From a virus (Duplodnaviria; Caudoviricetes): 64,000 nucleotides of DNA. Location of the stretch: the IMG/VR virus record IMGVR_UViG_3300033074_001257, positions 1 to 64,000 of that record; one strand, written 5' to 3'. The translations under genes were made by a program, and so were the position numbers. Positions 1 to 43,907 of the stretch are shown here, in pieces (positions within the stretch are counted from its first letter, which is position 1; each line of letters begins with the position of its first letter). The notes below the pieces were generated by a model. It searched no databases, had not been told where the DNA came from, and saw only the letters and a program-made list of their open reading frames with translations.

Positions 1-33
1 TTCACTAGCGATCGTGATTCACTAGCGATCGTG
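1..33. repeat. 17-bp tandem direct repeat (TTCACTAGCGATCGTGA x ~2), possibly truncated by the window edge
   Basis: 1-17 ttcactagcgatcgtga followed immediately by 18-33 ttcactagcgatcgtg. Confidence 0.8.
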
Positions 34-134
34 TGGCGCATAAAGTAAACTAGGTGACTGCCCCGGAGGTCACTATGCGCCACACGCCACCCAATCAACA
101 GATCATTGTCTACCTTTTGACACGAAGCCGTGAA

Positions 135-326: not shown

Positions 327-350
327 CTTATAAAATTTTTGGAGTGAGCC

Positions 351-977: not shown

Positions 978-1031
978 ATTAGCGATGTTGTTTACGCGAT
1001 CCAATGACTCACCTGTGTTTGGAGACACACC

Positions 1032-1928
1032 ATGTCAAAACTTGACGCATTCAAGGCAATGAAAGAAAAGTTTGCTTCTGGGCAAGCAACCAAGTCTGTC
1101 AAAGACGCTGTTCGCAAGGACACCTTCAAAGACGAACGCATGTGGCAATATGTGCCAAAAGATCGTGACACCGACGTCGGTCGTGCCAAGATTCGTTTCC
1201 TGCCCAGCCCCGACACCGAAAGCCCGTTTGTCACCTGGCGTGAATTTGGCTTCAAAGGCGAAGCTACCGGCAAGTGGTATTTTGAGCGTTCGTTGTCTAG
1301 CCTGAAAAAGACGGACCCTGTCGAAGAGTACAGCAAAGCACTGTACAAGGCCGGTAACAAAGCGCAAGCGGCAAAATACCGTTCACGCGAACAGTTCCTG
1401 TGCAACATCTACGTCATCGACGACCCCGTCAATCCCGAAAACAACGGCAAGGTCATGCTGTGGAAATTCGGTCGTTCGATCTACAACCTGATTGACAAAG
1501 CCATCAATCCGAAGTTCGAAGACGACCCGACCATCAACCCGTTCGATCTGTGGAACGGCGCCACGTTTGAGATCCGGACCTCAAAAGACACCAACCGGAT
1601 GCGCACTTACGACGACTCTCGCTTTGGTCCCATCGGTCCGCTGTTTGACGACGATGAAAAGCTGAAAGAGGTGTTTGAAAAATGCTACCCTCTGACGCCT
1701 GAGAACGACGAGAGCAAGTACAAACCGTTCAATGAGCTGAAAGACAAGTTCAACATGGTGATGGGCTTTGACGACGCGACCGGCAACCAGCCTGCCACTG
1801 CTGCTGAGCACCTCGCTGCCCGTGTGGCCCGCGGTCAACAGCAAGCGTCAGCCCAAGCACAAGCGCCCGCGCAAAACAGCATGGCTGCTGATGTGAGCGG
1901 CTATGAGGACCTGCTGGGAGACGACTGA
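1032..1928 (+). CDS. gp32: Single-stranded DNA-binding protein gp32
   Basis: DERMW, AKIRFLP, NIYVIDDP.NPENNGKVMLWKFG, NPFDLWNGATF motifs; acidic C-terminal tail. Confidence 0.95.
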   Translation: MSKLDAFKAMKEKFASGQATKSVKDAVRKDTFKDERMWQYVPKDRDTDVGRAKIRFLPSPDTESPFVTWREFGFKGEATGKWYFERSLSSLKKTDPVEEYSKALYKAGNKAQAAKYRSREQFLCNIYVIDDPVNPENNGKVMLWKFGRSIYNLIDKAINPKFEDDPTINPFDLWNGATFEIRTSKDTNRMRTYDDSRFGPIGPLFDDDEKLKEVFEKCYPLTPENDESKYKPFNELKDKFNMVMGFDDATGNQPATAAEHLAARVARGQQQASAQAQAPAQNSMAADVSGYEDLLGDD

Positions 1929-1943
1929 ACCTAGTTCGTGAAC

Positions 1944-1972
1944 AAATAGCCCCAACGCCTGGGGCTATTTTT
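1944..1972 (+). terminator. Rho-independent terminator after gp32
   Basis: AAATAGCCCCA-acgcc-TGGGGCTATTT hairpin followed by T tract. Confidence 0.8.
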
Positions 1973-1994
1973 ATGTCAATTTTTGAGGTGTGCC

Positions 1995-2423
1995 ATGAAA
2001 CTTGATGAGATTTTGCAGTTGATTTCTGAGGATTCGGTGATCAGTGAAGCTCACATCACCACCGAGTCCGCAAGAACGCCAAGGCTCCATGCAAAGTATT
2101 ACAGCATCTACATCGCCGAGCTTAAGGTTCTGAAGAGTATCGAACTACGCATGGACGAGCTGAAGCTAAAGGCGTTTGAATACTACAGCCATTTCAGCAG
2201 CGATGAAGTTTACCAAGCTCGACCGCTGCACCGCAAACCCCTTAAGAGCGAAATTGAGATGTACGTCTCAGCGGACCCTGACATCATCAAAATCCGCGGC
2301 GACTACGAACTACAAAAGATGAAAGTCAAGACGCTCGAAGATTTCATCAAGTCAATCTCGCAGCGTTCGTTCATCATCAAGAACATGATTGATTGGGAAA
2401 AGTACAAGAATGCTGCCTTGTGA
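1995..2423 (+). CDS. uvsY: Recombination mediator UvsY
   Basis: ES..TPRLHAKY, LK.EIEMYV.AD.DII, I.QRSF.IKN.IDW.KY motifs. Confidence 0.9.
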   Translation: MKLDEILQLISEDSVISEAHITTESARTPRLHAKYYSIYIAELKVLKSIELRMDELKLKAFEYYSHFSSDEVYQARPLHRKPLKSEIEMYVSADPDIIKIRGDYELQKMKVKTLEDFIKSISQRSFIIKNMIDWEKYKNAAL

Positions 2424-2480
2424 GTGTCAAGCGTGACACCTTGTGAGCGTTTAACTAAGGTTAAACACTTAGGTGATGAC

Positions 2481-2813
2481 ATGTCTAGTGTAGATCCAGT
2501 GACAGCTGCCCTCGTTTCGCACACTTATTACCTTGAAATCATGGTTGAGCGCCTAAGCGAACTCGACATGAGTTTTGAGGCGCTAGCTGCTTACGCGCGT
2601 GAAGTCATCACCATTATTATGCCTGAAGAGTGCCGATTTTCAATTGACTTCATGGTCGAGTTCACGGACCGCTTGTTGAGCGACAAGGGCGTGATTCACG
2701 ACTTGCTGGACGACATTGATTTTCTAACTCAAATGCGTGTTCGCGAGGTCTATGACCATTTCTTAGATCAGTGTATCGCCCAGTACGAGTATCAGCGAGG
2801 TTTAGTCAAGTGA
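2481..2813 (+). CDS. Hypothetical protein
   Basis: ORF with an SD-like taggtga; in the same operon. Confidence 0.55.
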   Translation: MSSVDPVTAALVSHTYYLEIMVERLSELDMSFEALAAYAREVITIIMPEECRFSIDFMVEFTDRLLSDKGVIHDLLDDIDFLTQMRVREVYDHFLDQCIAQYEYQRGLVK

Positions 2814-2974
2814 ATCAGTTTTGGTTGGCGGTTGTCATTTTTTCTTCATACTACCTGGGCGGCTTGATGGCTCGACACGGTCTAGAATTCAATTCTTACG
2901 TGATTGAGAATCGCTACCTGAGGCAGCGCATTGCGAATCTTGAATCCCAAATTAAGGAGAAGCGAAATGATTGA
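2810..2974 (+). CDS. Small membrane / coiled-coil protein
   Basis: GTG overlapping the upstream stop; hydrophobic FWLAVVIFSSYYLGGLMA then a charged coiled-coil tail. Confidence 0.5.
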   Translation: MNQFWLAVVIFSSYYLGGLMARHGLEFNSYVIENRYLRQRIANLESQIKEKRND

Positions 2975-3215
2975 TGCGGTTGACGTGTACGGTAAAGAGA
3001 ACTGCTCGCAGTGCAATACAGCAAAGCGCAAGCTACGGGCGAACGGGGTCCACTTCGTGTATCATGAGGTTGATGTCGAAACTGCCCAAAGCGTGGCAAA
3101 GCCGTACGGCGCCGCAGTGAAGCAGTTCCCGTTCTTTGTGGGCGGCGGCCGCCTGTGGTTGTACAGTGAGATTGATGCGATGATCTTGCACTACAGACGC
3201 CACAAGGAGAGCTAA
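2967..3215 (+). CDS. Glutaredoxin (NrdH/NrdC-like)
   Basis: VYGKENCSQC (CxxC) and QFPFF cis-Pro loop; SD aaggag. Confidence 0.85.
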   Translation: MIDAVDVYGKENCSQCNTAKRKLRANGVHFVYHEVDVETAQSVAKPYGAAVKQFPFFVGGGRLWLYSEIDAMILHYRRHKES

Positions 3216-3328
3216 GTGCCCGAATGATCGCATTCTCGCGCGTAGATCACACGTTGACGACACGATCGGTACAAAACCACCGCTGAAAGCTAGAAGTTAG
3301 CACAAGCGCCACACAGCGCCAAGATCAG

Positions 3329-3360
3329 AAAGCGACTCCATTTCAACGAGTCGCTTTTTT
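3329..3360 (+). terminator. Rho-independent terminator
   Basis: AAAGCGACTC...GAGTCGCTTT plus T tract. Confidence 0.8.
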
Positions 3361-3387
3361 ATTTGAATGAACTTTGCGCGACTCTGA

Positions 3388-3416
3388 TTGCGACTTACCG
3401 CAATTTGCGCTACAAT
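3388..3416 (+). promoter_or_regulatory. Sigma70-like (early) promoter upstream of the helicase
   Basis: TTGCGA-N17-TACAAT. Confidence 0.55.
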
Positions 3417-3442
3417 CGGTCATCAGAAAGTGAGATGCGAAA

Positions 3443-4699
3443 GTGAACGACTCTATTGAAACCCTCGACCAGTATTGCGAAGTCGCAAGCTACATTGACG
3501 ATCGCGTTCCTGTTACGGTGAACGGCGGCGCCGGCAGCGGCAAGTCCACCCTCATTAAGTGGATCAGAAACCGCTACGATAACGTGATTGTCGTTGCCCC
3601 AACCGGCATCGCTGCCATCAACGTCAGCGGCAAAACCATCCACAGCATGTTCAAGCTGCCGCCCAAGATGATTGAGAGCTACGACATAAAGCCGCAGTCA
3701 AAAGAAAAGCAAGCTGTTTTGAAAGCCGCTGAAGTCTTGATCATCGACGAAATATCAATGGTCAACCCGAACCTGCTTGATGCAATCAACCTATCGCTTC
3801 AGCTCAACCGACAAAAGCGATTGCCCTTTGGCGGGCTGGCTGTGGTACTGGTCGGTGACTTGTATCAACTGCCGCCCATTGACCCACAAGGCAAATTGGC
3901 GGAACGCTACGGTACGCCGTGGTTCTTCAGCTCAGACATCTTCAAAAAGATCAACCTAAAGACAGTTGAGCTCACAAAGATCTTTAGGCAGACGAACACA
4001 GAATTCGTCGATGCGCTGAACAGCATTCGCTTGGGTGTCGGTAAGGCAGCTGCGGTCAAATACATCAACGACCACGCCACCATCGCCAGCGACGCCATCC
4101 CCAATGAGGCAGTGATCATCAGCCCCTACAACCAAGTGGTTGACAACCTGAACGCTTATATGCTTGACGCCCTGCCCACGCCCCCCGTCACTTTCATTGC
4201 TAAAATTGAAGGCAAGTTCACCCAGTACCCAAACGACCCTGAGTTGACACTGAAGCAAGGCGCTCGTGTTATGTTTTGCAAGAACATGAGCTCGCTGGGC
4301 GTGGCAAACGGTTCAACGGGTGTGGTGACCGTGTGCAACCGCGATTTCTGTGAAGTCAAACTCGACAGCGGCATCACAGTCCGCGCGGTTCCTGAAACGT
4401 GGGAGGTTATCGACTACGGCACCGACAGCGAGGGCAACGTCACGATGACAGTCACTGCCAGCTATACCCAGATGCCGCTTCGCCTCGCGTATGCCATCAC
4501 GACGCATAGATCACAGGGCTTGACGCTTGAACGTGTTCACATTGAAATTGATCGCGGGTTCTTCGCATCAGGTCAAATGTACGTGGCTTTGTCGCGCGTG
4601 CGGGACATCGGTAAGCTGTCGCTGTCTCGACCCATTCGTGAAAGCGACATCATCATCGACAGCTACGTGACGGAGTTCTATGAGTCAAAGGTAGTGTGA
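3443..4699 (+). CDS. SF1B DNA helicase (Pif1/RecD-like)
   Basis: Walker A GGAGSGKS, APTGIAA, LIIDEISM, GDLYQLPP, AYAITTHRSQGLTL, YVALSR. Confidence 0.93.
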   Translation: MNDSIETLDQYCEVASYIDDRVPVTVNGGAGSGKSTLIKWIRNRYDNVIVVAPTGIAAINVSGKTIHSMFKLPPKMIESYDIKPQSKEKQAVLKAAEVLIIDEISMVNPNLLDAINLSLQLNRQKRLPFGGLAVVLVGDLYQLPPIDPQGKLAERYGTPWFFSSDIFKKINLKTVELTKIFRQTNTEFVDALNSIRLGVGKAAAVKYINDHATIASDAIPNEAVIISPYNQVVDNLNAYMLDALPTPPVTFIAKIEGKFTQYPNDPELTLKQGARVMFCKNMSSLGVANGSTGVVTVCNRDFCEVKLDSGITVRAVPETWEVIDYGTDSEGNVTMTVTASYTQMPLRLAYAITTHRSQGLTLERVHIEIDRGFFASGQMYVALSRVRDIGKLSLSRPIRESDIIIDSYVTEFYESKVV

Positions 4700-4719
4700 T
4701 TGCAGTGTGCTGTTGAAAT

Positions 4720-4745
4720 GCCGCCCTCAACTGGGCGGTTTTTTT
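4720..4745 (+). terminator. Rho-independent terminator
   Basis: GCCGCCC-tcaact-GGGCGGT plus T tract. Confidence 0.75.
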
Positions 4746-4807
4746 GTGAGCCTTTAATTACAGATTCAAGCGTGTCACGTTCGGAAAGAAGCTTCTTGGA
4801 GACCAAT

Positions 4808-7800
4808 ATGTTTGAACAACTAAATGAAAACTCGCTGTGGACAGACGGCGCGTCGTTGCAAGCGCACACAGTTGAAAGTGCCACCCAAGCGTTCTTTTTC
4901 AACTTTTTCGCATTTCTAAGCATGTACACCATCAGCAGCAACACCATCGTGATGCGAAACTATGTCGCAAGCGAGACGCACACGAAGCTGAGTGAAATTG
5001 ACGTCACCAACCACGACACCACCGCGTCAATCAAACTGGCTGCACACTTTAAAGTCATCACCGAACAGTCGGCACAGCGCCTGCTGCGTCTTGTGGCCAA
5101 GATCAAAGCGAAACAAATCACAAGCGATGATCTTCAAGATGAGATGATCAAGAAAGTTCTCACCGAACTGCACTACGGCACGCATCTGTCGTCCCAGCCT
5201 ATCTTGAAGTCTGCACTGGACGACTTCATGGACGGCAAAATCAACCTGCCGTTCGTGGCCTACTTCTTCTTCAAGCACTGGAAGAAGTTTGATAGCGTGA
5301 ACGCTGAAATCTCAGACATGTACAAGAAAGGTCACTTCTCAACCACCTACAGCGATTTCATGACCGGTCGCCGTAAGCTGAAGCGTGGCGTTCCGCGGCA
5401 CCTGATTAAGAACACCACTCCACTGACGGTTGTCTTTGAGAACGGCGTGGTCATTGACCCATCGGTGGTAGCGACAACGCAAGCGCAAGCGGCAGCCCCA
5501 GCTCCAGCGGCAGCGCCCGTGGCAGCCCCAGCGACCCAGCCCACTCAGAGTCCGGTGGCGGCGTTCCGTTCCAATTTGCAAGCGCAAACGGCAGCGCAAA
5601 CACAGGCGGCGGCGCAAACACAAGCACATCAAACACAAGCACAAGCGCATCAAACACAAGCGCAAGCACAAGCTCAAGCAGCAGCCCAAGCGGCAGCTCA
5701 AGTTCCCGCAACTGCGCCAGCACGGCCCGCCACCAGCACCGCCAACACTGTCAACACTGTCGTCGGCACAGCCAAGCTGAAATTTAGCGATCGAACTGCA
5801 GAACAGTGGCGCAAGTTCATTTGGGACGACACCAAGCTCATCCCCGAACACATTGAACAGATTGATGAGCGTGATCTTGGGCGTGTGGTGGCTGCCGTTT
5901 ACGAACTGCTGATTGATAGGTCAAGTCGCATTCAAGAAAAATACTACAAGGCAGTTTGGGCCCTGACGCTTGATGAGAAGTCGCGTGAAGCCGTGCGGCA
6001 CTGCATCGCTTATGATTATCTGAAAGCGATCCAGTACGTTCCAGATGAATACGAAGTCAAAGGTTCGCTGAGTGAGTCCATCCTCACAGCCGACGTCGCG
6101 ACATCAGCGAACATGATTGTGACGCTCGTCGCAGTCGACCCCAATCAAGCAAAGAGTGACGAACGTCGAAGAAAATTGCGCGTCATCGCCAATGCCGTGT
6201 TCCAAACCGATAGCCCAGACGTCTGGGATCGCTACCTGAACGCTTCTTATAGCTCCAAACAGCGCACGGCAGCACTCTACCTGAAAACACTCTCTGAAAA
6301 AGACGTCAAAGAGTCGCTGATGCGCAACTATATGGACTATTACAAATCGTCAGATACACTGAAGCAAGTCAGCAACCACTTCAAGGTTGATGTCTACAAC
6401 GGTGCCATTGAAGTGATCTACGATCAAAACTACTCAAGAGAACACAAAGACGAGTTCATGCTCGTCAACTACCTGGCGTCTTACTTCAACGTCGACGTCA
6501 TATTCAGACCAACGACAGTCGCCAACATTATCGTGGGCAATTTGACGGGCCAGCGCACTGCTGCCCAGTGGGCTAACCTGATTGTCAAGGACGGCGAATT
6601 TAGCCAGGCGCTGGTTGAGCGTGAAGTTGACGCGCAAGTGAGATACGAGATCATCAGCGTCGCATTCGACTACATGTTGACTCAGATCAAAGATGCTGAA
6701 GCGGTCGCCAAACTGCTTCGCAGTGCCGAAGGCTTGTTTGACATCACACTAGGTCGGTACGGTGAGCTCGTCGACAAGATGCTGAAGAAAGCAAGTAACG
6801 GTGAGGTTGAACTTGCAATCGACATCCCCTACCCCGACGGCGTGAAGTCTAACAAAAGTGTGGTTGACACAAATCGCGTGGTTCAACTGCTGTCTGTGAT
6901 GCCGCTGTCTAAATTGTTCGTGAAAGATTCACTTGAGTCGCTTCGCAAATTGCTGAAGCATATGAGTTATTATCCTCATTTTGATTTCGTGCTCGATGAA
7001 GATAAAATGGCGACTCAGGTCACGCTGTCGGTTGCTTCTGTGGGTATGCGATATGCGCTGGCTGCACTGAAGGAAAATCTCGAAAAAAATAACGCCCTGC
7101 CCAGCGACGCGGTGATAAACTTCGATGAGAGCGTCCCTGTCGTCGACTGCGGCAACATTGAAAATAGTGCAAACAAGTTCATTTATGATACCCTGGTGAA
7201 AGTGAAATCTGTAGGTCGGTTGAAATTTGTTCTGCGGTACAGAAACAGCCGGGCTTTCACCATCACCCCAGGACAGCGCACTGCCCCAGAATATGAGATT
7301 TGGCAGGGCAGCAAGATCAATCCAGACTTCACGCCCAGCTGCTCGTATGACGAGTCAAAGTTCGCCATCATTGAGGGTTGGCGTGAATTTAACCCACACA
7401 CCACTCACTTTGATCGCGTTAAGGTGGCGGGGAGTGAAGCACTCATCCGTTCATACTTTATCAATCATGGATTCAAGACAAACGTCACAGGTCAAGACTT
7501 CATGCTTCGGCACGCGATTGATGGCTTCGCGGACGTTCACAATCTGAACTTTGCTTCGCCTAAAGTGAGTTCGTCATACGACAAGGAGATCTTGAACTAT
7601 TTGGTTGATACGGCATACGATTACCTGCTCGATCAAATACTCAACAATAAGATCAGACACTACGTCTCTCACATGTCTCGGTGTGGGACCTCACTGAACC
7701 TCATTTTCAACAGCGAGAAGTTCAAAGAATGGGGAACCATCAAGAACATGTTCGCCGTGCCTGCGACCGATCAAGTCATGTACTACACTATCCTGGCACG

Positions 7801-10321
7801 ATACTTCAAGCACACAAATCGCTTTGAGAAAGGAAAGTTCGCGCACACTTTCCTTGACTTCGTCACTGTCCTGTCACAAGACAGTCGCTTTAGTCCTTAC
7901 CTGAAAATTCAACCGAGCACCCCCTCTCAACGACCCGCTGTGACGGTTGACGTGACAAACACGACGCCGGTTATGCGAGCTTGGCTGGTGGCGATCACTG
8001 AACTTTACAGCGAGACTGTCGGTCTTTATACGGAATATGACAGCAAGACCATCGCCCTGGGCAGCGACGGCGAGCCTGTCTTGGTTGACGTCACCGAAGA
8101 GACTTTGCAGTTCCAAGATAGGCCAAACTTTAGGATGTACAATTCGCCCCTTGAGATTGAAAATCACGTACTGGCAAACCTCAAGGATGACGAAATCCCA
8201 CTCGTTGCCAAAGCACTTGAGGGCTGGTCATCGAAATCTGAAAATTTCGAATACCGTTTCTGGGCTGAAGCGAAAAGAATCCGAGGGCGTGAAGCGCGTC
8301 TGAATTTTATTCGCGTCATCCTGGCGACGCTGTCCATGCAAAGTGATGTGAAGGCGATGGCAACTCTGGTCTTGATGACCATCGCCTTTGAGGGTGACGA
8401 GGTGCTGTCTGACCTCATCAAAGCCGCGTACGATAAGCAAGCTAAGGTCATCAGTTCAAGCAGTGACGCGCCAGAGAAAGTCTTTTCAATCATTGATATC
8501 CTGAGCAACTACAGTTATGATAGAGTGGCGAAGATCAAGCTGGTGTTTGGTTTTGCGCCCAAAGACCGAATTTACTCACAAGACCTTATCGGTGAATTGA
8601 TCGAGCACAACGTGTACCCAACCACCGACCCGTTCATGGAAGCTCAAGCCAAAGCGTACATCAAGGAATTTGATACCGACACTTTGCTCAAGTGGAACAA
8701 GTTCTATACCTTCATGCACTTGCCTGAAGTTGAGGACATTATTGTTCAGGGCATTAAAGACCGACACCCTGCGGCGATTCGAATAGTCAATACTTCTTGG
8801 TACCTTAACACTGCTGCACAAGTCAAACCGACCAAAAAGTTCATTGAGGCTTGTCTGGAAGCGGGCATGACCGTGAAGAACAGCCAAGTGGGTTATTCGA
8901 GCGCATACAATCTCAAGAACTATCCCAAGAACCTGCTTGAGAGCATCTTCTATTCGGGGCGCACCATTGAAAGCAGCGACGAAAAGTTTCTTTCGTACTA
9001 TGAGTCGGTGCGCGTAAACTTCTGGCTGAACAGCAATGTAGATGACAGCCATAAAGTGATTGACGTTGACTTGATTCGTGAAGAGCCCAATCGTGCTAGC
9101 GTGAACATCGCTGAGAGAAACTCGCACATCAGCAAGATGACGTCTTTCGTTTACGCACTGGGCCATTCGACAAAAGACGAACAGTTGAAGCTGCTTGACT
9201 ACTGCCAGATTGACGCGAAGAATGTTCGTGAGGCGTTCTTTAAGCCTGAGCTCCAAATGATCTCAGCAGTGGCCAAGAACGCAAGCAACCTGCACCAGAA
9301 GACCATGGAGTGGATCTTGAACGTGCTGTCTAGCTTCTTGCACAGCGGACCGGGCTCAAGCCAAATGCGGCGCACTGCCTGGAATGAGTTTTTCCCGAAA
9401 CTGAACGATACTTTGAAGCAGTTTTCGGACGCGGGCGGCGACTTCAAGCTCAAGAAGACAAACAAGGTGCCAGACCTCTTCAGTGCCAACCAAGCGTTTT
9501 TGGTTCGTCAACAAATCGACGAGCAGTCCACGAAATACGGACTGGACATCGGTGACGTGGATAACGAACTGCTTCAAGTGGGCATGGCTTTGAATGGTGT
9601 TGAATTCACTGCCAACTTTGACAACGTCAAGTCCATGAGTGACCTGGCGTCGATTGTGGACGCTGGGCAAACTGCCATCACACTGAAGGAACCCTTTGTC
9701 AGTCGCTTGCCGATTGAAGATCTGCCCACGCGAATCAAGCGCGGTCGCGATATGACCATGGGCGGCTTCTCAGGGCGTCACACCAACACCGTGCCGCTTG
9801 TTCTTGAGTCGTATGAGGTCAACAAGCCGGGCAACAAAGAACGCGTCGAGGCGTTCCGACAATCCGTGGGCGGTGAATACGCGCGTAATTTCTACCACTC
9901 TTGTGGAACGCTTGCAGCCAGTTTCATTCTGCGCTACGGATTCAAGAACGTGACAGATCCTAAGCTCGTTGTGGGTAAAATGCTGGGGGACGGTCTGTAC
10001 GTGGCTAAACATGTAGACAAGACCATCCAGTACGCCACCAACCGCACCAACTACACGGATGTCGGTGACGTGGGCTACATGATCGTCTTTGATGTTGTGT
10101 TTGGCAAAGTTAGCAATAACCCGAACGACATTCCAAAGAGCGAATACGACACGATTATGGCGCCAGGTGTCGGCTCACTTTCAGACATCCGCACGCCAGA
10201 ATGGTGCCTGCGTCGCGCGGAAGATCAAGCCGTGTATGTGGCAGCGCACAAAGTTCGAGTCACACACATCAGCGAGCTTGAAAAAATGGCCGCTGAAAAT
10301 AACGTTCCCTGGGTTGAGTGA
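4808..10321 (+). CDS. Giant (~1,837 aa) protein with a C-terminal PARP-like (H-Y-E) ADP-ribosyltransferase domain
   Basis: C-terminal FYHSC...ILRYGF...GKMLGDGLYVA...K..QY...GYMIVFDVVFG...PEW parallels the PARP catalytic signature; the ORF-track start at 4700 runs through a terminator, so ATG 4808 is preferred. Confidence 0.8.
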   Translation: MFEQLNENSLWTDGASLQAHTVESATQAFFFNFFAFLSMYTISSNTIVMRNYVASETHTKLSEIDVTNHDTTASIKLAAHFKVITEQSAQRLLRLVAKIKAKQITSDDLQDEMIKKVLTELHYGTHLSSQPILKSALDDFMDGKINLPFVAYFFFKHWKKFDSVNAEISDMYKKGHFSTTYSDFMTGRRKLKRGVPRHLIKNTTPLTVVFENGVVIDPSVVATTQAQAAAPAPAAAPVAAPATQPTQSPVAAFRSNLQAQTAAQTQAAAQTQAHQTQAQAHQTQAQAQAQAAAQAAAQVPATAPARPATSTANTVNTVVGTAKLKFSDRTAEQWRKFIWDDTKLIPEHIEQIDERDLGRVVAAVYELLIDRSSRIQEKYYKAVWALTLDEKSREAVRHCIAYDYLKAIQYVPDEYEVKGSLSESILTADVATSANMIVTLVAVDPNQAKSDERRRKLRVIANAVFQTDSPDVWDRYLNASYSSKQRTAALYLKTLSEKDVKESLMRNYMDYYKSSDTLKQVSNHFKVDVYNGAIEVIYDQNYSREHKDEFMLVNYLASYFNVDVIFRPTTVANIIVGNLTGQRTAAQWANLIVKDGEFSQALVEREVDAQVRYEIISVAFDYMLTQIKDAEAVAKLLRSAEGLFDITLGRYGELVDKMLKKASNGEVELAIDIPYPDGVKSNKSVVDTNRVVQLLSVMPLSKLFVKDSLESLRKLLKHMSYYPHFDFVLDEDKMATQVTLSVASVGMRYALAALKENLEKNNALPSDAVINFDESVPVVDCGNIENSANKFIYDTLVKVKSVGRLKFVLRYRNSRAFTITPGQRTAPEYEIWQGSKINPDFTPSCSYDESKFAIIEGWREFNPHTTHFDRVKVAGSEALIRSYFINHGFKTNVTGQDFMLRHAIDGFADVHNLNFASPKVSSSYDKEILNYLVDTAYDYLLDQILNNKIRHYVSHMSRCGTSLNLIFNSEKFKEWGTIKNMFAVPATDQVMYYTILARYFKHTNRFEKGKFAHTFLDFVTVLSQDSRFSPYLKIQPSTPSQRPAVTVDVTNTTPVMRAWLVAITELYSETVGLYTEYDSKTIALGSDGEPVLVDVTEETLQFQDRPNFRMYNSPLEIENHVLANLKDDEIPLVAKALEGWSSKSENFEYRFWAEAKRIRGREARLNFIRVILATLSMQSDVKAMATLVLMTIAFEGDEVLSDLIKAAYDKQAKVISSSSDAPEKVFSIIDILSNYSYDRVAKIKLVFGFAPKDRIYSQDLIGELIEHNVYPTTDPFMEAQAKAYIKEFDTDTLLKWNKFYTFMHLPEVEDIIVQGIKDRHPAAIRIVNTSWYLNTAAQVKPTKKFIEACLEAGMTVKNSQVGYSSAYNLKNYPKNLLESIFYSGRTIESSDEKFLSYYESVRVNFWLNSNVDDSHKVIDVDLIREEPNRASVNIAERNSHISKMTSFVYALGHSTKDEQLKLLDYCQIDAKNVREAFFKPELQMISAVAKNASNLHQKTMEWILNVLSSFLHSGPGSSQMRRTAWNEFFPKLNDTLKQFSDAGGDFKLKKTNKVPDLFSANQAFLVRQQIDEQSTKYGLDIGDVDNELLQVGMALNGVEFTANFDNVKSMSDLASIVDAGQTAITLKEPFVSRLPIEDLPTRIKRGRDMTMGGFSGRHTNTVPLVLESYEVNKPGNKERVEAFRQSVGGEYARNFYHSCGTLAASFILRYGFKNVTDPKLVVGKMLGDGLYVAKHVDKTIQYATNRTNYTDVGDVGYMIVFDVVFGKVSNNPNDIPKSEYDTIMAPGVGSLSDIRTPEWCLRRAEDQAVYVAAHKVRVTHISELEKMAAENNVPWVE
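5480..5760 (+). repeat. Ala/Gln/Pro/Thr low-complexity linker with short tandem repeats inside the giant ART gene
   Basis: AAAPAPAAAPVAAP and QTQAHQTQAQAHQTQAQAQAQAAAQAAAQ, encoded by repeated caagca/caaaca units. Confidence 0.8.
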
Positions 10322-10332
10322 TGGAGATTCAA

Positions 10333-10707
10333 ATGAGTGACTTGTATGACGACATGGTACAAACTGCCTTCATGTTCGTGGATGGGTATGTTCCCATCTG
10401 CCGACACCCGATCACGGGCTTGGTGTTTGCCATGAACCTGAACGACCCGGCAGTCGGTGAGATGCCGTGGTTTAAGACGCTGAAGTTTGATTTGGTGATG
10501 GGTTCGACAGTGGCTTTGTTCTTTGAAACGAGCGGCGTAGATCAATTCTACCGTCTGACTCCAAAAGATCAAGATGCCGTCGATCTTTTCATCAAGCGCA
10601 TCAACTACCAGCTGACGGAAAGCGAGATTGAGCAACTGGTGACGGACACTGCCAACCACTACCAGGAACTGTACGCTCACCTTGACGTGGACGACGAAGA
10701 CGAATAA
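10333..10707 (+). CDS. Hypothetical acidic protein, coupled to the ART gene
   Basis: SD ggag 7 nt upstream; the ORF overlaps or abuts the ART stop. Confidence 0.6.
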   Translation: MSDLYDDMVQTAFMFVDGYVPICRHPITGLVFAMNLNDPAVGEMPWFKTLKFDLVMGSTVALFFETSGVDQFYRLTPKDQDAVDLFIKRINYQLTESEIEQLVTDTANHYQELYAHLDVDDEDE

Positions 10708-10736
10708 CAAGCGCAAGCAACAGCAAACGCTGAACG

Positions 10737-10766
10737 AAACGGTTACCTAGTGTAACCGTTTTGTTT
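10737..10766 (+). terminator. Rho-independent terminator
   Basis: AAACGGTTAC-ctagt-GTAACCGTTT plus T-rich tail. Confidence 0.75.
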
Positions 10767-10989
10767 GACTGGGTTTTGTGAAATCGGCTTTAAATGCGCG
10801 AGATCGCGTTCTAAGCCGCCCAGTGGCACTGCGCCACCATCTCGTGCTGAAGTGTGTCAAATTCGCCACGAGATTGCCAGTAAACGCCATTCAGTGACAA
10901 CACTCAATGCACTTTGTTAGCGTGAACTGAAATCGATGTCTTTTTTCGTGGCTTAACTATACCGTAGTCAACAATCGACAGGTTACATC

Positions 10990-18730: not shown

Positions 18731-19801
18731 ATGTTTTCAGACGTTGCTTTTATTCGAATACTCGGCAGCCAACTTGAAGGGTTCACTTCAAACGGCGCCA
18801 CGACTTATAACTTCCGCTGCCCCATTTGCGGCGACAGCCAAAAGTCAAAAAGCAAGAAACGCGGATACATTTACGAGGACAGCGGTCGATACTATTTCAA
18901 GTGTTGGAACTGTAATGAGTCACTGTCTTTCAGAAACTTCCTGAAGCGAGTGAGCCCACCCCTCTACGACGATTACGTGAAAGAGACACTCACGCACAAC
19001 AGCGCACCCACGCAGCCGACGCGAAAAGTCACAGACGTAAAAGTGGACGCTGCCGGTGAGTTCAAGCGACGGGCAAACGACAAGATTCTAGACGTGTGTG
19101 AACCCGCCACCGGTGACCACGACGGCCACGGCTACCTGCTGGGGCGCGGCTTAAGCGATCAGCAGATGCGCGATCTGTATTTCGTAGACAACATCAACAA
19201 GATCACGAAGCAAGTTGAAAAGTACGCAGGTCGCGACTACAGCGACAACTTGTGTGCCGTTGTCCTGCCCTTCCGTGACGTTGATGGTGTGATCACACAC
19301 ATTCAACTTCGGATACTGAACGGCGGCGACAACTTTCGCTATCTGATTTTGGCTTTAGACGACAGCAAACCCAAGTTCTTTGGATTGGATAAGGCTAACT
19401 TCAAGCAAACCGTCTACATCACCGAAGGCGGCTTTGACAGCCTGTTCGTGCGCAACGGCATTTCGGTAAACCAAGGCGCTTTGACATCCTGTGTCAGTGA
19501 AATCAAAAAGCACACCGACGACTTCGTTCTCGTCTACGACATGGACTACCTGACGAACGCGCAAATTAACCGCGACTTGGTTAAGGCGATTGACTGTGGC
19601 TATCGGGTAGTCGTGTACGACAGAGCAACGCTGAACCGCACTGTGAACGGCAAGCGAGTGAAAGACTTGAACGACTTGTCAAACAGCGGAATAAGTGACG
19701 TCACGGCTTACTTGCAAAAGCGCACATTTCGCTCCATCCAAGCAAAGATTGAATTGTCACTGACCAGCCCCTTAAATAAAAACAAGACCAGAATGGTGTA
19801 A
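18731..19801 (+). CDS. gp61: DNA primase gp61
   Basis: Zn finger NFRCPICGDS...RGYIY...YFKCWNC; TOPRIM VYITEGGFDSLF; KDLND. Confidence 0.95.
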   Translation: MFSDVAFIRILGSQLEGFTSNGATTYNFRCPICGDSQKSKSKKRGYIYEDSGRYYFKCWNCNESLSFRNFLKRVSPPLYDDYVKETLTHNSAPTQPTRKVTDVKVDAAGEFKRRANDKILDVCEPATGDHDGHGYLLGRGLSDQQMRDLYFVDNINKITKQVEKYAGRDYSDNLCAVVLPFRDVDGVITHIQLRILNGGDNFRYLILALDDSKPKFFGLDKANFKQTVYITEGGFDSLFVRNGISVNQGALTSCVSEIKKHTDDFVLVYDMDYLTNAQINRDLVKAIDCGYRVVVYDRATLNRTVNGKRVKDLNDLSNSGISDVTAYLQKRTFRSIQAKIELSLTSPLNKNKTRMV

Positions 19802-21271: not shown

Positions 21272-21460
21272 ATGTTCACGAACGAACTCAACAAAACCCT
21301 CTATGAGTCACACGGTAGGGGGTTTGGTCTTGTCGCAGAACAATTGCGCAAACTTCTAGCCAGCGAGAAGTCAAAGCTCACCGGCGACCAGTACCTCAAC
21401 TGTATTTCAATCATCGAGTTTCTGAATGAGGTTGATGGGTTGTTGAGTGAGAAGAAGTGA
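21272..21460 (+). CDS. Hypothetical protein
   Basis: 62-aa ORF coupled to the upstream gene. Confidence 0.5.
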   Translation: MFTNELNKTLYESHGRGFGLVAEQLRKLLASEKSKLTGDQYLNCISIIEFLNEVDGLLSEKK

Positions 21461-21467: not shown

Positions 21468-21492
21468 GAGCCGCTACCACAGCGGCTTTTTT
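21468..21492 (+). terminator. Rho-independent terminator
   Basis: AGCCGCT-accac-AGCGGCT plus T tract. Confidence 0.7.
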
Positions 21493-21530
21493 GTGGCTGT
21501 AAAATATGAGAAAGCGCCAAGGTAGATCTC

Positions 21531-21878
21531 ATGTACGTCAAGAACGACCGATACCTCATTGAGACTGATGATGGGTATTGTCACTTTCGCGGAATGAAAA
21601 AAGACACCGCCCATCAAACGATTGACATTGCTTACACGGTGGGCGACGTGGTGGGCAGCATTGAATCAACTTGCGACCATAAGCACTACATCACAAAGAC
21701 CGACAGCATCCCCGCCGATCGCGTGGCTGTAGGCGATGTTTTGTACGGCGGTGCAAACACCCAAGGCGAAGTCAAAGTAACCGCTGTCGCGCTAAAAAGC
21801 GGCCTCGTCGACGTGTTTGACGTGGTTGACGTGTTCCCACGCCGATCGTTCATGGCCAACGGAATCAAGACATCAAAT
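21531..21878 (+). other. Split intein C-fragment IntC2
   Basis: YLIETDDGYCHFRG start, TxxH block B, ends S-N|C. Confidence 0.9.
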
Positions 21879-22985
21879 TGTGTCTACTTGGACGAATTTG
21901 CTTTCGTTGAGAACGCGGACGAATTTTACGCTAGCACTTACCCGACAATCTCAAGTTCTGACAAGACAAAACTAATCATCACGAGCACACCCAACGGCTT
22001 GAATCTGTTCTACAAGATCTTCAGTGAAGCTACCCGCGGACTGAATGCGTTCAAACCCTACCACATCAAGTGGCAAGAGCACCCGCGGCGCGATCCTGCA
22101 ATCAACCCCCAGTGGGAGATTGACACTCGCGCAAACATCGGCGCACAGCGATTTCGTGTTGAGTATGACTGTGAGTTCCTGGGCAGCTCAAGGACACTGA
22201 TAAGCGGTGAAGCACTGGCTAAGCTCACAGCCCAAAACCCGACCCGCACTGAGGGCGACGTCTACAGTGAGTTTGAAGCCCCACAAGAAGGTCGACGGTA
22301 TGTTCTGATCGTGGATTCAAGCAACGGAGTGGGCTTAGACTACACGGTTTGCAACGTCATCGACATCACCGAAACACCTTACAAGCAAGTGGCAATCTTC
22401 CGCGATGACAAAACCCCACCACAAGCGGCTGCCATCACGGTGGACCGTTTGTCGCGTCGCTACAATGAAGCACTGGTTGTGGTTGAGAACAATCACGCAA
22501 GCGGAGCACTGATCTTAGACACGCTGTGGTTCACATTCGAGAATGAGAACATCCTGTTCACGAACGTCAACCGCGGCGAGGCAGTTCTTGATGGGCAAGC
22601 ACGAAAACAGCAGATGGGTGTCACCACCACTACCAAAACGAAGAGCAAAGGCTGCTCGCGCCTAAAAGATCTCATTGAACACAATTTGCTGTTAATCAAC
22701 GACACGAACACCATTGACGAGCTGATGACCTTTTCACTTGTGAACGGTCGTTATCAAGCTGAGCGCGGCAAGCACGACGACACGTCCATGACACTGGTTC
22801 TGTTCGCTTGGCTCACGGGCGAGGACTACTTTGTCGATCTATATGGGGTGGACGTAAATAAGATTGTTCTTAAAGATTTGAGTGAAGTGAATTTTTTTGG
22901 ATTCGTCGATGACTACACAGGACGGTCGGTGAACACGTCTTACTTGCTGCCCGCCTTAAGTAATCGAACTGACTTGATTAAGTAA
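21531..22985 (+). CDS. gp17: Terminase large subunit, C-terminal fragment, preceded by a split-intein C-fragment (IntC2, 116 aa)
   Basis: Residues 1-116 are HINT-like (block B STCDH, block F VDVFDV, terminal TSN). They are followed by C+1 Cys of CVYLDEFAF (Walker B), IITSTPNG, and nuclease motifs VDSSNGVG.DYT, VENN, HDD. No Walker A. Confidence 0.93.
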   Translation: MYVKNDRYLIETDDGYCHFRGMKKDTAHQTIDIAYTVGDVVGSIESTCDHKHYITKTDSIPADRVAVGDVLYGGANTQGEVKVTAVALKSGLVDVFDVVDVFPRRSFMANGIKTSNCVYLDEFAFVENADEFYASTYPTISSSDKTKLIITSTPNGLNLFYKIFSEATRGLNAFKPYHIKWQEHPRRDPAINPQWEIDTRANIGAQRFRVEYDCEFLGSSRTLISGEALAKLTAQNPTRTEGDVYSEFEAPQEGRRYVLIVDSSNGVGLDYTVCNVIDITETPYKQVAIFRDDKTPPQAAAITVDRLSRRYNEALVVVENNHASGALILDTLWFTFENENILFTNVNRGEAVLDGQARKQQMGVTTTTKTKSKGCSRLKDLIEHNLLLINDTNTIDELMTFSLVNGRYQAERGKHDDTSMTLVLFAWLTGEDYFVDLYGVDVNKIVLKDLSEVNFFGFVDDYTGRSVNTSYLLPALSNRTDLIK

Positions 22986-23020
22986 TTTGCGAAAACAACC
23001 CAACGTGAGGGAGAATAAAA

Positions 23021-24757
23021 ATGGCTTTTGGCGTACTGACACAAGAAAAGGACTACCAAAGTTCCGTGGCGAGTCCTGAGGGCAGTGCCGGCGGTATCGC
23101 GGGAACTTTCACTTGGGGACCGATCGGCGTGCCCCGACTGATTTCATCTGTGAGTGAGCTTGAAAAATCCTTTGGCAAGCCCACCGACGCAAACTTCGCC
23201 GATTGGTTTAGCGCAAGCGACTTCCTGGCATCGTCGAATGCCCTGTACGTGGTTCGCGTATTGCACAGCGGCAGCAACGACGCGAACGCAACTTCAACGG
23301 GTGACTATGACGCTGAGCGCATGATCCGCAGCGACACCCACTTCAACGTCCTGCAAGCAACCGATGCACTTGACCAGGAGTTCTATGCACGTTACCCAGG
23401 TGAGCTGGGCAACAGTCTGCTGGTTAGCATCGCCGACCAAAGCAACTTCAGCACCTGGGCTTACCGGAACCTGTTTGACCGCGCGCCAAGCTCAACCAAC
23501 TACGCGAAGCAAGTGTTCACTAACGCTGGCTCAACCGAAACCCCAAACGACGAGCTGTGCATCGTGGTGGTTGATGCCCTGGGTGAAATCACCGGCGCAC
23601 CGGGTACGGTACTTGAAACATTCGCAAACCTCTCAAAATGCCTCGACGCCAAGAGCGACCTGGGCGTCAACAACTATTACGTCTCCACGCTGAACGCTCG
23701 CTCGTCTTACATCTATGCCGGCGTTCCGCTGGGCGGCACCCTGGTGTCGAACACAAACGGCGACAAAGCCGCGTGGGGCACAGCAGCCAAGGCCGGTGTT
23801 TCTTTCGCGCCCATCAACGCCCAGTACACAGTCACCCTGTCGGGCGGCGTTACCGATTCGATCGGCACCGCAAGCGATTATGCTGACGCTTACACTATTC
23901 TGTGTGGGCTTGAGGACAATCGCCTGAACATCATCATCGCCGGCGCTTGTGGTTCCGATGCGCACCGACTGACTGTTCTGCAAGCAATTGAAGCGGGCTG
24001 TCTGAAAAGCGAGAAGCGCGTGGCGTTCTGCTCACCGAAGATCAGTGACTTCCTGCACACCACGCCCGCTGAAATTGAACAAGCCATTCTGGACACTTGG
24101 ACCGCGACCACCACCAAAACAAACGTCATGTCGATGGACAACAACGCGAAACTGGTCTATGACAAGTACAACAGCGTATACCGCATTATCCCGTGCAACG
24201 CTTCTGTCGCAGGCGCATGGGCGCGAACTCACGCCAACTACGGCCCGTGGAAATCCGCTGCCGGTTATGTTCGCGGTAACCTGACGAACGTGGTCAAGCT
24301 CATGTACTCGCCTGACCGCCTCGCCATGGAAACCTTCCAGAAGAAAGGCATCAACAACATCATCACCGATGATGGCGCAGTGTACCTGATGGGCGACAAG
24401 ACGCTGCAACAGCGTGAAAGTCCCTTCACCTACCTGGGCGCTCGCTTCTTGACCATCTCAATCAAGAACCTGACTCGCGACTCAGCCAAATATACCCTGT
24501 TTGAATCAAACGACCAGCGCACCCGAAACAACTTCGTGAGCGGCGTCACTCCGCTGCTTGAAAACATTCAAACCCAGGGCGGCTTGCAAGCGTTTCGCGT
24601 AGTGTGTGACGGATCAAACAACGACGCTTACACAGTCTCAACCGGCGGCTTCGTGTGTGACATCGCATTCAAGCCCTACCAGTCCATTCAATGGATCATG
24701 CTGAAATACAGCGTCTTGGGTGCCAACGAGTCATTCGACGAAGTCCTGGGTAACTAA
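23021..24757 (+). CDS. gp18: Tail sheath protein gp18
   Basis: GIAGTFTWGP, FGKPTD, ARYPGELGNSL, PWKSAAG..RG, GDKT, FESND..TR. Confidence 0.95.
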   Translation: MAFGVLTQEKDYQSSVASPEGSAGGIAGTFTWGPIGVPRLISSVSELEKSFGKPTDANFADWFSASDFLASSNALYVVRVLHSGSNDANATSTGDYDAERMIRSDTHFNVLQATDALDQEFYARYPGELGNSLLVSIADQSNFSTWAYRNLFDRAPSSTNYAKQVFTNAGSTETPNDELCIVVVDALGEITGAPGTVLETFANLSKCLDAKSDLGVNNYYVSTLNARSSYIYAGVPLGGTLVSNTNGDKAAWGTAAKAGVSFAPINAQYTVTLSGGVTDSIGTASDYADAYTILCGLEDNRLNIIIAGACGSDAHRLTVLQAIEAGCLKSEKRVAFCSPKISDFLHTTPAEIEQAILDTWTATTTKTNVMSMDNNAKLVYDKYNSVYRIIPCNASVAGAWARTHANYGPWKSAAGYVRGNLTNVVKLMYSPDRLAMETFQKKGINNIITDDGAVYLMGDKTLQQRESPFTYLGARFLTISIKNLTRDSAKYTLFESNDQRTRNNFVSGVTPLLENIQTQGGLQAFRVVCDGSNNDAYTVSTGGFVCDIAFKPYQSIQWIMLKYSVLGANESFDEVLGN

Positions 24758-24776
24758 CAAAAAAGGAGGGCACTAA

Positions 24777-25415
24777 ATGTCCAACAATGCTGACGTAGGT
24801 AAATTCTTGAACCAGCTTTCAGGTGGAGGATTTCGCCCAAACCGCTATGAGGTGAATTTCACCTTTCCAAAGGCGATTGACGAAATCACCAAGTACACTC
24901 CAAATGAGCAGATTTATCCTGAAGGCGCCGACGCCACCCGAGCCAAGGCCAACAACATCACGAACCTGCAAGCCATCAAAGACCACGTCTCTTTCATGGC
25001 CAAGGGCACTAAAATTCCATCGATGCAAATCGGTGAGATTGAACTGCCGTACAAAGGTCGCAAGCTGAAAGTGAACGGCGACGTGACTCTGGATGATTGG
25101 GAAGTTACGCTGATCATGGATTCAAACGGCAAGTCACGCGGCTTGTTTGAATTCTGGATGGAAGCGATGCTGGGTGTTTACACAAACACGACTTCTCGTT
25201 CGCTCATGAACCCCGCGAACTACATGGGCACTGCCACAGTTCGGGCACTCGGTCGTGATGATGAGCTTGAAGCCATCTATGTCCTGTCAGACATCTATCC
25301 GAAAAACGTCGGTGAAATTGCCCTGGCGTGGGACAGCAACGATCAGGTCGCTGAAGTGAACGTGACTTTCGCAGTCAACAACGTCCGCAGCCGCTACACT
25401 AAGCCGCTGGCCTAA
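24777..25415 (+). CDS. gp19: Tail tube protein gp19
   Basis: GGFRPNRYEV, IPSMQIGEIELPYKGR.LKV.GD..LDDW, PKNVGEI.L.WDSND. Confidence 0.95.
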   Translation: MSNNADVGKFLNQLSGGGFRPNRYEVNFTFPKAIDEITKYTPNEQIYPEGADATRAKANNITNLQAIKDHVSFMAKGTKIPSMQIGEIELPYKGRKLKVNGDVTLDDWEVTLIMDSNGKSRGLFEFWMEAMLGVYTNTTSRSLMNPANYMGTATVRALGRDDELEAIYVLSDIYPKNVGEIALAWDSNDQVAEVNVTFAVNNVRSRYTKPLA

Positions 25416-25435
25416 TCGCGGGTTAAGTAACAAAC

Positions 25436-25460
25436 AAGCCTCGCAACAGCGGGGCTTTTT
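25436..25460 (+). terminator. Rho-independent terminator after gp19
   Basis: AAGCCTCGC-aaca-GCGGGGCTT plus T tract. Confidence 0.75.
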
Positions 25461-25475
25461 GTTGGGAGTCTATTC

Positions 25476-25814
25476 GTGCGCAAGTTTACAGAAATGCAGA
25501 TCGTTGACGATTACGAGGTTTTGACCGATAAAGGTTTCGTTGACGTGCAAGCTATCATGACAACTGTCCCCTATATCGTTCACGTGCTGGTGACAGACGC
25601 CGGTCACTTTTTGTACGCAGCAGACGATCACTTGTTGATTGACGCAAACGGCGACACTGTAGCAGTCAAAGACGCCTTGAACAAAACGATCAAGGTGAAC
25701 GGCGGCACCGCAACTGTCACACATGTAATTGAGACTGCCGAACGTGTGCCCATGTACGATTTGCAGATCGCTGCACCGCACACGTTCTACACGAACGAAA
25801 TCTTGAGCCACAAC
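25476..25814 (+). other. Split intein C-fragment IntC1
   Basis: YEVLTDKGF start, ADDH block B variant, MYDLQI block F, SHN|T terminus. Confidence 0.9.
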
Positions 25815-26225
25815 ACTACCACAGTGGCGGGCTACCTGCTTCACTTGGCCATGTTCAATGAAGACTATTCCATCGCCATCCTAGCCAACAAGAAGTCGCA
25901 AGCAACCGAAGTCCTAGATCGCATCAAGACGATTTATGAATGCCTGCCCTGGTGGCTGCAAATTGGCGTTCGCCGATGGAACGTGGGGGACATTTTGCTG
26001 GACGGGGGTAAGAAGGGTTCGAAGATCTCAACCTCAGCAACCAAGGGCGGCGGCATTCGGGGTAAGTCGGTCAACTGCTTGACTGGAACCGCGAGAGTGC
26101 GCGTATACGACACGTTCACCGGCGTGGTGGAGGACTTGTGCCTGAGTGACCTGTACAACCGCCTTAGAGCGCACGAGATTGCCAGCAATCGCCCTTCACA
26201 GGACACAACCCAGGCGATAAAATGA
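25476..26225 (+). CDS. gp17: Terminase large subunit middle fragment: IntC1 (113 aa) - 87-aa ATPase extein - IntN2 (49 aa)
   Basis: Residues 1-113 are HINT-like and end YTNEILSHN|T. The extein TTTVAGYLL...AILANK...EVLDRIK...WN.G...IRGKSVN matches T4 gp17 between Walker A and Walker B. It is followed by CLTGTARVRVYD...DLYNRL, an intein block A. Confidence 0.93.
   Translation: MRKFTEMQIVDDYEVLTDKGFVDVQAIMTTVPYIVHVLVTDAGHFLYAADDHLLIDANGDTVAVKDALNKTIKVNGGTATVTHVIETAERVPMYDLQIAAPHTFYTNEILSHNTTTVAGYLLHLAMFNEDYSIAILANKKSQATEVLDRIKTIYECLPWWLQIGVRRWNVGDILLDGGKKGSKISTSATKGGGIRGKSVNCLTGTARVRVYDTFTGVVEDLCLSDLYNRLRAHEIASNRPSQDTTQAIK
26076..26225 (+). other. Short split intein N-fragment IntN2
   Basis: Starts with Cys1 (CLTGTARV) and ends ~30 residues later at LYNRL plus a tail, as in atypically split TerL inteins. 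Confidence 0.88.
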
Positions 26226-43611: not shown

Positions 43612-43907
43612 TATCCACAGCACAAGCCAGCAACTTACAACAGGGTGACAGATGTTGCCCTTTTGTTTGGCTGTGCTTGCAATTGCCCAAAGCCAATCTC
43701 ACGCGCACAGCGGCGCATCAAAGCGAATTGTGGTAACAATGCACCACCGACGACAGTGATGCGCCTTAAACGCCACGAGATTGCCAGCAATCTACCCTGA
43801 GCACGCTCACGTGGCGTGTGTTTTCACCCAGCAGCAGCGCGACTGCTCAAAAACGCTGTCTCAAGGGTGCTAAACTACCTCACACAATTGAAGGGTAGAG
43901 GTTTCAC

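Follow-up and report, generated by a model that had tools for sequence, protein, structure and literature searches.

We analyzed a stretch of 64,000 nucleotides (positions 1 to 64,000 of IMG/VR virus record IMGVR_UViG_3300033074_001257, hereafter the window), which forms the first 64 kb of an 85,404-bp virus contig with a CheckV completeness of 41% and a GC content of ~51%. According to Pfam and PHROGs, T4-like genes with structural and replicative roles are present in the window, namely those for RNase H, sheath, tube, baseplate and gp32. As judged from sequence, the coding of the large terminase subunit (TerL) in this T4-like myovirus is divided among three genes, the products of which are most likely joined post-translationally by two distinct split inteins. 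Both inteins consist of a short N-terminal half (IntN) and a long C-terminal half (IntC), with 31 + 113 amino acids (aa) for intein 1, positioned at Walker A (site a), and 49 + 116 aa for intein 2, positioned at Walker B (site b). The three pieces (N-piece, middle piece and C-piece) are separate open reading frames (ORFs), each with its own start and stop codon. Their intein halves and exteins, the segments of TerL itself, are arranged as follows.

L022:4337-4849 (a Logan contig described below), ~2.2-2.7 kb before window base 1, minus strand: N-piece P0042, 170 aa, consisting of a 139-aa N-extein and the 31-aa IntN1
21531-22985, plus strand: ORF-C (C-piece), 484 aa, consisting of the 116-aa IntC2 and a 368-aa C-extein
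21531..21878, plus strand: IntC2, 116 aa, with block B TCDH and block F DVFDV, ending GIKTSN
21879..22985, plus strand: C-extein, 368 aa plus stop; Cys+1 and Walker B (CVYLDE) are followed by the remaining ATPase domain and an RNaseH-like nuclease domain
25476-26225, plus strand: ORF-M (middle piece), GTG start, 249 aa, consisting of IntC1 (113), extein (87) and IntN2 (49)
25476..25814, plus strand: IntC1, 113 aa, with block B ADDH, block F MYDL and block G ILSHN
25815..26075, plus strand: middle extein, 87 aa, TTTVAGYLL...IRGKSVN; Thr+1 is the T of Walker A GKT and the end lies just before Walker B
26076..26225, plus strand: IntN2, 49 aa plus stop, starting CLTGTARV; Cys1 is invariant in the family

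The intein/extein boundaries of ORF-M and ORF-C agreed to the residue with those proposed in an initial annotation made from the window alone. Note that only about the first 35 aa of IntN2 are common to its relatives.

Collinearity of the exteins with uninterrupted TerL

The Pfam profile Terminase_6N was matched by ORF-M at positions 11-97 and by ORF-C at positions 96-213, followed in ORF-C by Terminase_6C. Since the Terminase_6N positions adjoin, ORF-M and ORF-C are collinear and abut. Joining the three exteins in silico (139 + 87 + 368 aa) produced a 594-aa protein that aligned with the TerL of Acidovorax phage ACP17 (504 aa, uninterrupted) over 500 positions, with 45% identity and free of gaps at both junctions. 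At site a, GRQAGK/TTTVAGYLL (slash, junction) aligned with SRQMGK/TTVAAGYLL of ACP17, and at site b IRGKSVN/CVYLDEFAF aligned with VRGKSIN/IVYMDEFAH. In pairwise comparison, the middle extein was 52% identical to residues 66-149 of ACP17 TerL, and the C-extein 45% identical to residues 146-491.

The same register was obtained with T4 gp17, residues 166-248 of which align to ORF-M 113-198. Site a corresponds to K166/T167 of gp17 and site b to A250/M251 (native numbering). We take site a to lie inside Walker A of gp17, and the Walker B strand (MIYID) to begin at M251, with E256 after it. The motifs of T4-type large terminases are all present across the pieces (GRQAGK/T, CVYLDE with the catalytic Glu, and Terminase_6C), and removing both inteins restores a continuous host protein relative to both ACP17 TerL and T4 gp17.

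Identification of the N-piece

The N-piece is not in the window, as the initial annotation had stated, and it is also missing from the complete 85.4-kb contig. No match to a TerL N-terminus was obtained in the contig with Pfam in six frames, with tblastn using the intact ACP17 and Shigella phage Ag3 TerLs, or with phrog_2 and phrog_5989. Searches by regular expression and tblastn likewise returned no N-piece in the contig or in the loci of four relatives. The annotation had proposed to look elsewhere in the genome for a gene ending in ...RQxGK/C plus a short IntN. Such a gene, P0042, was found on Logan contig SRR32380201_1570 (L022; 82,725 bp), with GRQAGK/C and a 31-aa IntN1. L022 carries the exact ORF-M protein, overlaps window positions 1-10977 with 0 mismatches and continues 7,052 bp further upstream. 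The available sequence of the window phage (contig plus L022 extension) thereby amounts to 92 kb in total.

The N-extein of P0042 ends in ...FTIFLLGRQAGK, followed by IntN1, CVDGRTMVTVRNKKTGEVRRLSMDEFKSLTA (31 aa), and a stop codon. The junction reads ...LGRQAGK/CVDGRTMVTV..., with IntN1 beginning with Cys. P0042 is similar to the N-piece of Salicola phage SCTP-2 (see below), to Ag3 TerL and to residues 8-65 of ACP17 TerL. On phrog_5989 it covers positions 83-170; the ORF-M match (160-293) follows directly. A 62-aa ORF at 21272-21460 was considered as an IntN1 tail and rejected, as it has neither Walker A nor a family match and the real N-piece lies elsewhere.

Intein identity of the flanking segments

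A profile of the middle-piece family (31 sequences, 37-96% identity) matched the inteins gp41-1 (E 1e-10), VidaL (1e-9) and CatC (1e-8), and every alignment ended at N113. The AlphaFold2 (AF2) model of ORF-M, computed with the family alignment, had a predicted local distance difference test score (pLDDT) of 77 overall and of about 85-95 over residues 10-110. Foldseek with this model returned the VidaL, Ssp DnaB, gp41-1 and Cat inteins as top matches, while T4 gp17 matched the extein part.

For intein 2, a hidden Markov model (HMM) of site-b IntCs was built from the intein parts only of six sequences (P0044, three IMG/VR C-pieces, one contiguous intein and SCTP-2). IntC2 without its extein matched this HMM end to end (53 bits, E 2e-15) and IntC1 matched it at E 6e-10, whereas no further ORF of the 85-kb contig scored better than E 1. 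IntC2 is 34% identical to the CatC-like IntC of P0044, which in turn matches CatC (PDB 6DSL) at E 1.8e-12 and has a junction, N/CVYLDEFAF, identical to that of the window. Used alone as query, IntC2 had no CatC match among PDB sequences, only a weak match to a DnaE intein, and no tblastn match in the phage collection. IntN1 and IntN2, each alone, gave nothing significant against PDB sequences. An hhalign comparison of the middle-piece profile with IntC2 was collinear and below significance.

When the halves were joined, IntN1+IntC1 showed 34% identity over the whole length with a contiguous 159-aa intein of Shigella phage Ag3 at the same GK/T site, and IntN2+IntC2 showed 27% identity with the contiguous site-b intein of locus L054. 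Each pair of halves aligned end to end and amounts to a complete mini-intein. In both inteins the break lies within a variable linker, about 30-35 residues in. Thus, both are atypically split, with a short IntN and an IntC that contains blocks B, F and G. Between the two pairs, IntC1 and IntC2 are 35% identical and IntN1 and IntN2 26%. The net charges (+3 for IntN1 and -9 for IntC1; 0 for IntN2 and -3 for IntC2) are too weak to argue for pairing specificity.

A cultured phage with the same three pieces

In a tblastn search of GenBank phages with ORF-M, a single record covered IntC1, extein and IntN2 together, that of Salicola phage SCTP-2 (MF360958). SCTP-2 is a cultured 440-kb jumbo phage with a complete genome, in which the N-, middle and C-pieces lie 40-210 kb apart. 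Its middle piece, gp267, has the architecture of ORF-M. The N-piece (130 aa, at 429 kb) reads ...ARQLGK/CVDYETN... across the junction; in GenBank, it and gp267 are labeled only 'terminase large subunit'. The C-piece (L005:1441-3525, minus strand) is about 40 kb from gp267, and its IntC2 ends ...NVSQ, with Gln for Asn, followed by CDEFAF. Site b of SCTP-2 is accordingly shifted by three residues (LLY/CDEFAF compared with SVN/CVYLDEFAF in the window), a shift also present in P0030. The SCTP-2 C-piece has in addition a third, contiguous intein of ~230 aa between YPTIS and TGGKCIITTTP. No intact terL was found in the complete SCTP-2 record with Terminase_6N and ORF-C as queries. That a phage propagated in culture has only the three pieces is the strongest argument available that these are joined, or at least cooperate.

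Conservation and selection

Across the 31 middle pieces, block B A-D-x-H, the block F Asp, S-H-N, Thr+1 and Cys1 of IntN2 (C201) are invariant, and the Asn before it (N200) is nearly so. Ratios of nonsynonymous to synonymous substitution rates (dN/dS) were determined against a relative with 96% protein identity that shares the gene order of the window.

ORF-C: dN/dS 0.09
C-extein: dN/dS 0.065
IntC2: dN/dS 0.22
ORF-M: dN/dS 0.045
IntC1: dN/dS 0.024
Middle extein: dN/dS 0.013
Sheath gene (comparison): dN/dS 0.07

Both terL genes in the window are under purifying selection. This bears on the possibility that the pieces are decaying remnants and that an intact terL resides in the unsequenced part of the genome, only about 41% of which is in the contig. 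The values for the two genes (0.05-0.09) are like that of the sheath gene, and together the three pieces make up exactly one TerL, with neither overlap nor loss. T4-like phages have a single terL. By the initial annotation, an intact copy elsewhere would have made the pieces remnants; none was present in the 85.4-kb contig or in the 92 kb available for the window phage, and the complete SCTP-2 genome has the same layout and no intact copy. Decay of the three genes is therefore very unlikely.

Gene order and neighborhood

The three terL genes lie out of order, on both strands and up to about 28 kb apart. Within the window, the C-piece is separated from the middle piece by the sheath and tube genes.

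21468..21498, plus strand: terminator-like hairpin and T-run just upstream of the C-piece gene (8-bp stem, 5 GC pairs, TTTTTGT tail)
23021..24757, plus strand: tail sheath gene (gp18-like), with Pfam sheath domains; phrog_23 E 2e-81
24777..25415, plus strand: tail tube gene (gp19-like); phrog_45 E 1e-45
25436..25467, plus strand: terminator-like hairpin 5' of the middle-piece gene; a GGGAG Shine-Dalgarno sequence comes after it

The placement of the C-piece upstream of the middle piece with gp18 and gp19 in between, and the lack of a homing endonuclease, had been described in the initial annotation and were borne out by Pfam and PHROGs. The small ORFs flanking the three pieces had no homing-endonuclease domain by Pfam (E<=1) or PHROGs.

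As the source is a metagenome assembly, the scrambled order could reflect an assembly chimera or a misjoin of strains. The order C-piece, sheath, tube, middle piece is also found in independent ENA and Logan assemblies, however, and order and junctions agree across four independent assemblies: the IMG/VR contig, the Logan contig (identical over 10,977 bp and the 2,750 bp compared), a 97.6-kb ENA contig and another Logan run (96% protein identity). An assembly error as the source of the scrambled order is extremely improbable.

The N-piece is located among DNA-metabolism genes (exonuclease, gp32, UvsY and a Dda-like helicase), and the other two pieces are in the tail/baseplate module. The N-piece is the lone minus-strand gene among plus-strand genes, which include two phrog_5070 paralogues, the exonuclease, a Hydrolase_2 enzyme, gp32 and UvsY. 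It looks like a single-gene inversion or relocation.

Several further features were observed in the window. The terminator-like hairpins stand directly 5' of both terL pieces located there. The T4 late-promoter motif TATAAATA has 0 copies across the 64 kb, the T4-like structural genes notwithstanding. A 30-nt sequence in the non-conserved tail of IntN2 (26161-26190, coding for RLRAHEIASN) recurs with one mismatch at 43763-43792, where none is expected by chance; this second copy is intergenic and follows a 2083-aa ORF. A 19-nt core of the repeat is also present in the 96% relatives, and a sigma-70-like site (26195-26223) lies after the repeat, just ahead of the next gene. The IntN2 tail may be an absorbed regulatory or repeat element. 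Upstream of RNase H, the ORF at 18731-19801 (356 aa) has N-terminal CxxC...CxxC motifs and no Pfam match. By position, its product may be a divergent primase-like protein.

Proposed assembly of TerL

In the proposed mechanism, two HINT folds would be completed after translation as IntN1 docks onto IntC1 and IntN2 onto IntC2. Splicing would follow the class 1 pathway: Cys1 would form a thioester, which Thr+1 would attack at site a and Cys+1 at site b, and the terminal Asn would cyclize. The three exteins would be ligated into a 594-aa chain in which Walker A and Walker B are rebuilt, so that ATPase activity would arise only after both ligations. The two intein pairs would have to be orthogonal: with its IntC-extein-IntN geometry, the middle piece could otherwise be cyclized or skipped. 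With respect to origin, the most likely course would be that contiguous inteins at the same sites were split, that the pieces were dispersed by genome rearrangement and that homing endonucleases were lost.

The class 1 nucleophile is present in both inteins, as Cys1 of IntN1 (after GRQAGK) and of IntN2, and so is the block B His (ADDH in IntC1, TCDH in IntC2). Block G of intein 1, SHN/T, is invariant. Several observations weigh against the proposed assembly. Block B of IntC1 is ADDH and not TxxH, with Ala for Thr throughout the middle-piece family. In intein 2, block G is TSN/C: Asn and Cys+1 are present and the penultimate His is replaced by Ser, also in the 96% relative, while other site-b IntCs end in HN. 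Pfam is silent on IntC2, the single-sequence AF2 model of which has a pLDDT of 32, and dN/dS is uninformative for IntN2 (7 substitutions). With IntC halves that are 35% identical, cross-reaction between the pairs is conceivable, orthogonality being what we infer. Finally, about half of the genome of the window phage is unsequenced (CheckV 41%), so that an intact terL could formally exist elsewhere.

The missing penultimate His of IntC2 (TSN) and the ADDH of IntC1 in place of TxxH would also fit an arrangement in which the intein halves dock but do not splice, and TerL functions as a non-covalent complex of three chains held together by two reconstituted HINT domains. However, Cys1, the terminal Asn, Thr+1 and Cys+1 vary little or not at all across the family, as expected of chemistry and not of docking. 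Docking alone would also leave a 144-aa HINT domain inside the P-loop (K166/T167) and a second one at the first residue of the Walker B strand. In ASCE ATPases, HINT domains within the P-loop or Walker B are hard to reconcile with ATP binding. Moreover, cultured phages such as Ag3 have contiguous homologues at the same sites, and these presumably must splice. We consider docking without splicing quite unlikely. At the sequence level, our results support the initial annotation, in which TerL is made from three polypeptides by two atypical split inteins located at Walker A and Walker B; ligation by trans-splicing is the reading we favor.

Tentatively, the scatter of the pieces might be more than the debris of selfish elements and be put to use, with the orthogonal pair of closely related atypical split inteins serving as an AND gate that acts after translation to control when DNA packaging starts. 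The motor could then be assembled only where three separately expressed precursors are present together and, perhaps, in a suitable redox state. The idea derives from the P-loop and Walker B existing only after two ligations and from the location of the pieces in different gene modules; on balance it is unlikely to be correct.

Distribution of split terminases

Related pieces are widespread. A word-indexed protein search yielded 33 clusters of middle pieces. Among them are sequences from Lake Vida brine and other JGI metagenomes, in which middle pieces again precede baseplate genes, but follow rIIA/rIIB. An N-piece search with HMMER gave 1,594 matches among 1.84 billion representatives; 93 of the best 150 N-piece matches (clusters at 50% identity) are stand-alone proteins ending in QxGK/C plus 19-68 residues. 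The SCTP-2 N-piece as query returned only 7 close relatives, and an exact-pattern scan of IMG/VR with ORF-M alone returned no close relative.

Site b occurs in IMG/VR in several states: empty (sometimes with Cys already at +1), occupied by a contiguous intein, either a mini-intein or a larger one, and split. By a rough classification, the pieces of some middle-extein relatives terminate at a third site. At four IMG/VR loci (L105, L112, L113 and L116), crude regular expressions identified ORFs of ~333 aa that have an IntC1-like start, run through Walker B and stop ~125-136 residues later. This suggests a further downstream split site, and other piece counts, in related phages.

Three middle pieces (P0028, P0032 and P0033; ~326 aa) have an extra extension of ~85 aa after IntN2 with an HNH-like motif, HHI.P...GG..DK.N.V.LT..EH. 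The extension is a possible candidate for an endonuclease fused to a short intein half, an intermediate in intein breaking, and the fusion fits the idea that endonuclease activity breaks the intein. In the Lake Vida and JGI relatives (L019 and L020, 518-3542), the large subunit of ribonucleotide reductase is also in pieces. The fragments (261 aa and 277-280 aa, Ribonuc_red_lgC) have a faint intein match and a 421-aa ORF between them, the classic layout of a fractured gene.

Comparison with known systems

AceL-TerL, GOS-TerL and the consensus Cat intein (PDB 6DSL) are characterized atypical TerL inteins, all with Cys+1 (PMC11766414), and the published sizes are 25-37 aa for IntN and 104-122 aa for IntC (PMC2677866; PMC11766414). 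The window shares with them the TerL host, the break point (short IntN, long IntC with blocks B, F and G), Cys1 and Cys+1. In contrast to the window, those inteins were described as single splits, and at the GOS locus the gap contains an endonuclease gene. The TerL of the window has a second atypical split intein (Thr+1, Walker A), scrambled pieces and no adjacent endonuclease gene, and its IntC2 ends in SN where theirs end in HN. The initial annotation had assumed a different insertion site for AceL-TerL and GOS-TerL. This holds for intein 1, the relatives of which are contiguous Walker A inteins of Ackermannviridae. It is probably wrong for intein 2, which groups with these atypical inteins through the site-b HMM and which, by the match of P0044 to CatC and by Cys+1, probably sits at the Cat-type, AceL/GOS-TerL site.

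The insertion site of intein 1 is identical to that of the contiguous TerL Walker A mini-intein in Ackermannviridae (QSGK/C...SHN/TT; for example in Shigella phage Ag3 and Dickeya phage LIMEstone1). Theirs is contained in one polypeptide and splices in cis, whereas the window intein is broken after about 31 residues. The terminase genes of SCTP-2 follow the same three-piece plan as those of the window phage, differing in the three-residue shift of site b, the Gln at the end of IntC2 and the third, contiguous intein in the C-piece.

Among 27 fractured-gene loci described by Dassa et al. in 2009 was one gp17-like terminase with an unusual intein break and an IntC of 122 residues (PMC2677866). 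In that layout, the N-part, an endonuclease gene and the C-part are adjacent on one strand, with a single split per gene (PMC2677866). In these loci as in the window phage, a split intein interrupts a conserved phage enzyme gene, the parts of which are translated separately and united by trans-splicing (predicted for the window phage). The window phage differs in having two splits and three genes, a C-piece before the middle piece, an inverted N-piece and no endonuclease.

Tandem protein trans-splicing, in which two orthogonal split inteins join three segments, is known from laboratory designs, and the IntC-target-IntN geometry is used in the laboratory to cyclize proteins (SICLOPPS). The window phage resembles these systems in segment count and in the geometry of the middle piece, with the difference that it would be a natural and essential instance. 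The initial annotation knew of no described natural case. We likewise found no publication describing a natural protein built from the products of three genes by means of two split inteins, and neither a jumbo-phage overview nor a paper citing SCTP-2 mentions a three-piece terminase. The layout is, however, not confined to the window but belongs to a widespread family.

Natural split inteins have so far been described as single breaks giving two-piece proteins, and three-segment ligation as the handiwork of engineers. Here, an essential phage enzyme appears to depend on tandem trans-splicing by two related short-IntN inteins. The family would be a ready source of co-evolved orthogonal pairs of atypical inteins, the short IntN of which is prized for semisynthesis, and a natural test case for the evolution of orthogonality between paralogous inteins. 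SCTP-2 provides a cultured system in which tandem trans-splicing could be shown in vivo. For annotation, such phages seem to be without a complete terL or to have three 'terminase' genes. In conclusion, the type of element is known from the systems above; what is new is the presence of two atypically split inteins in one essential protein, the pieces of which are scrambled and have no adjacent endonuclease.

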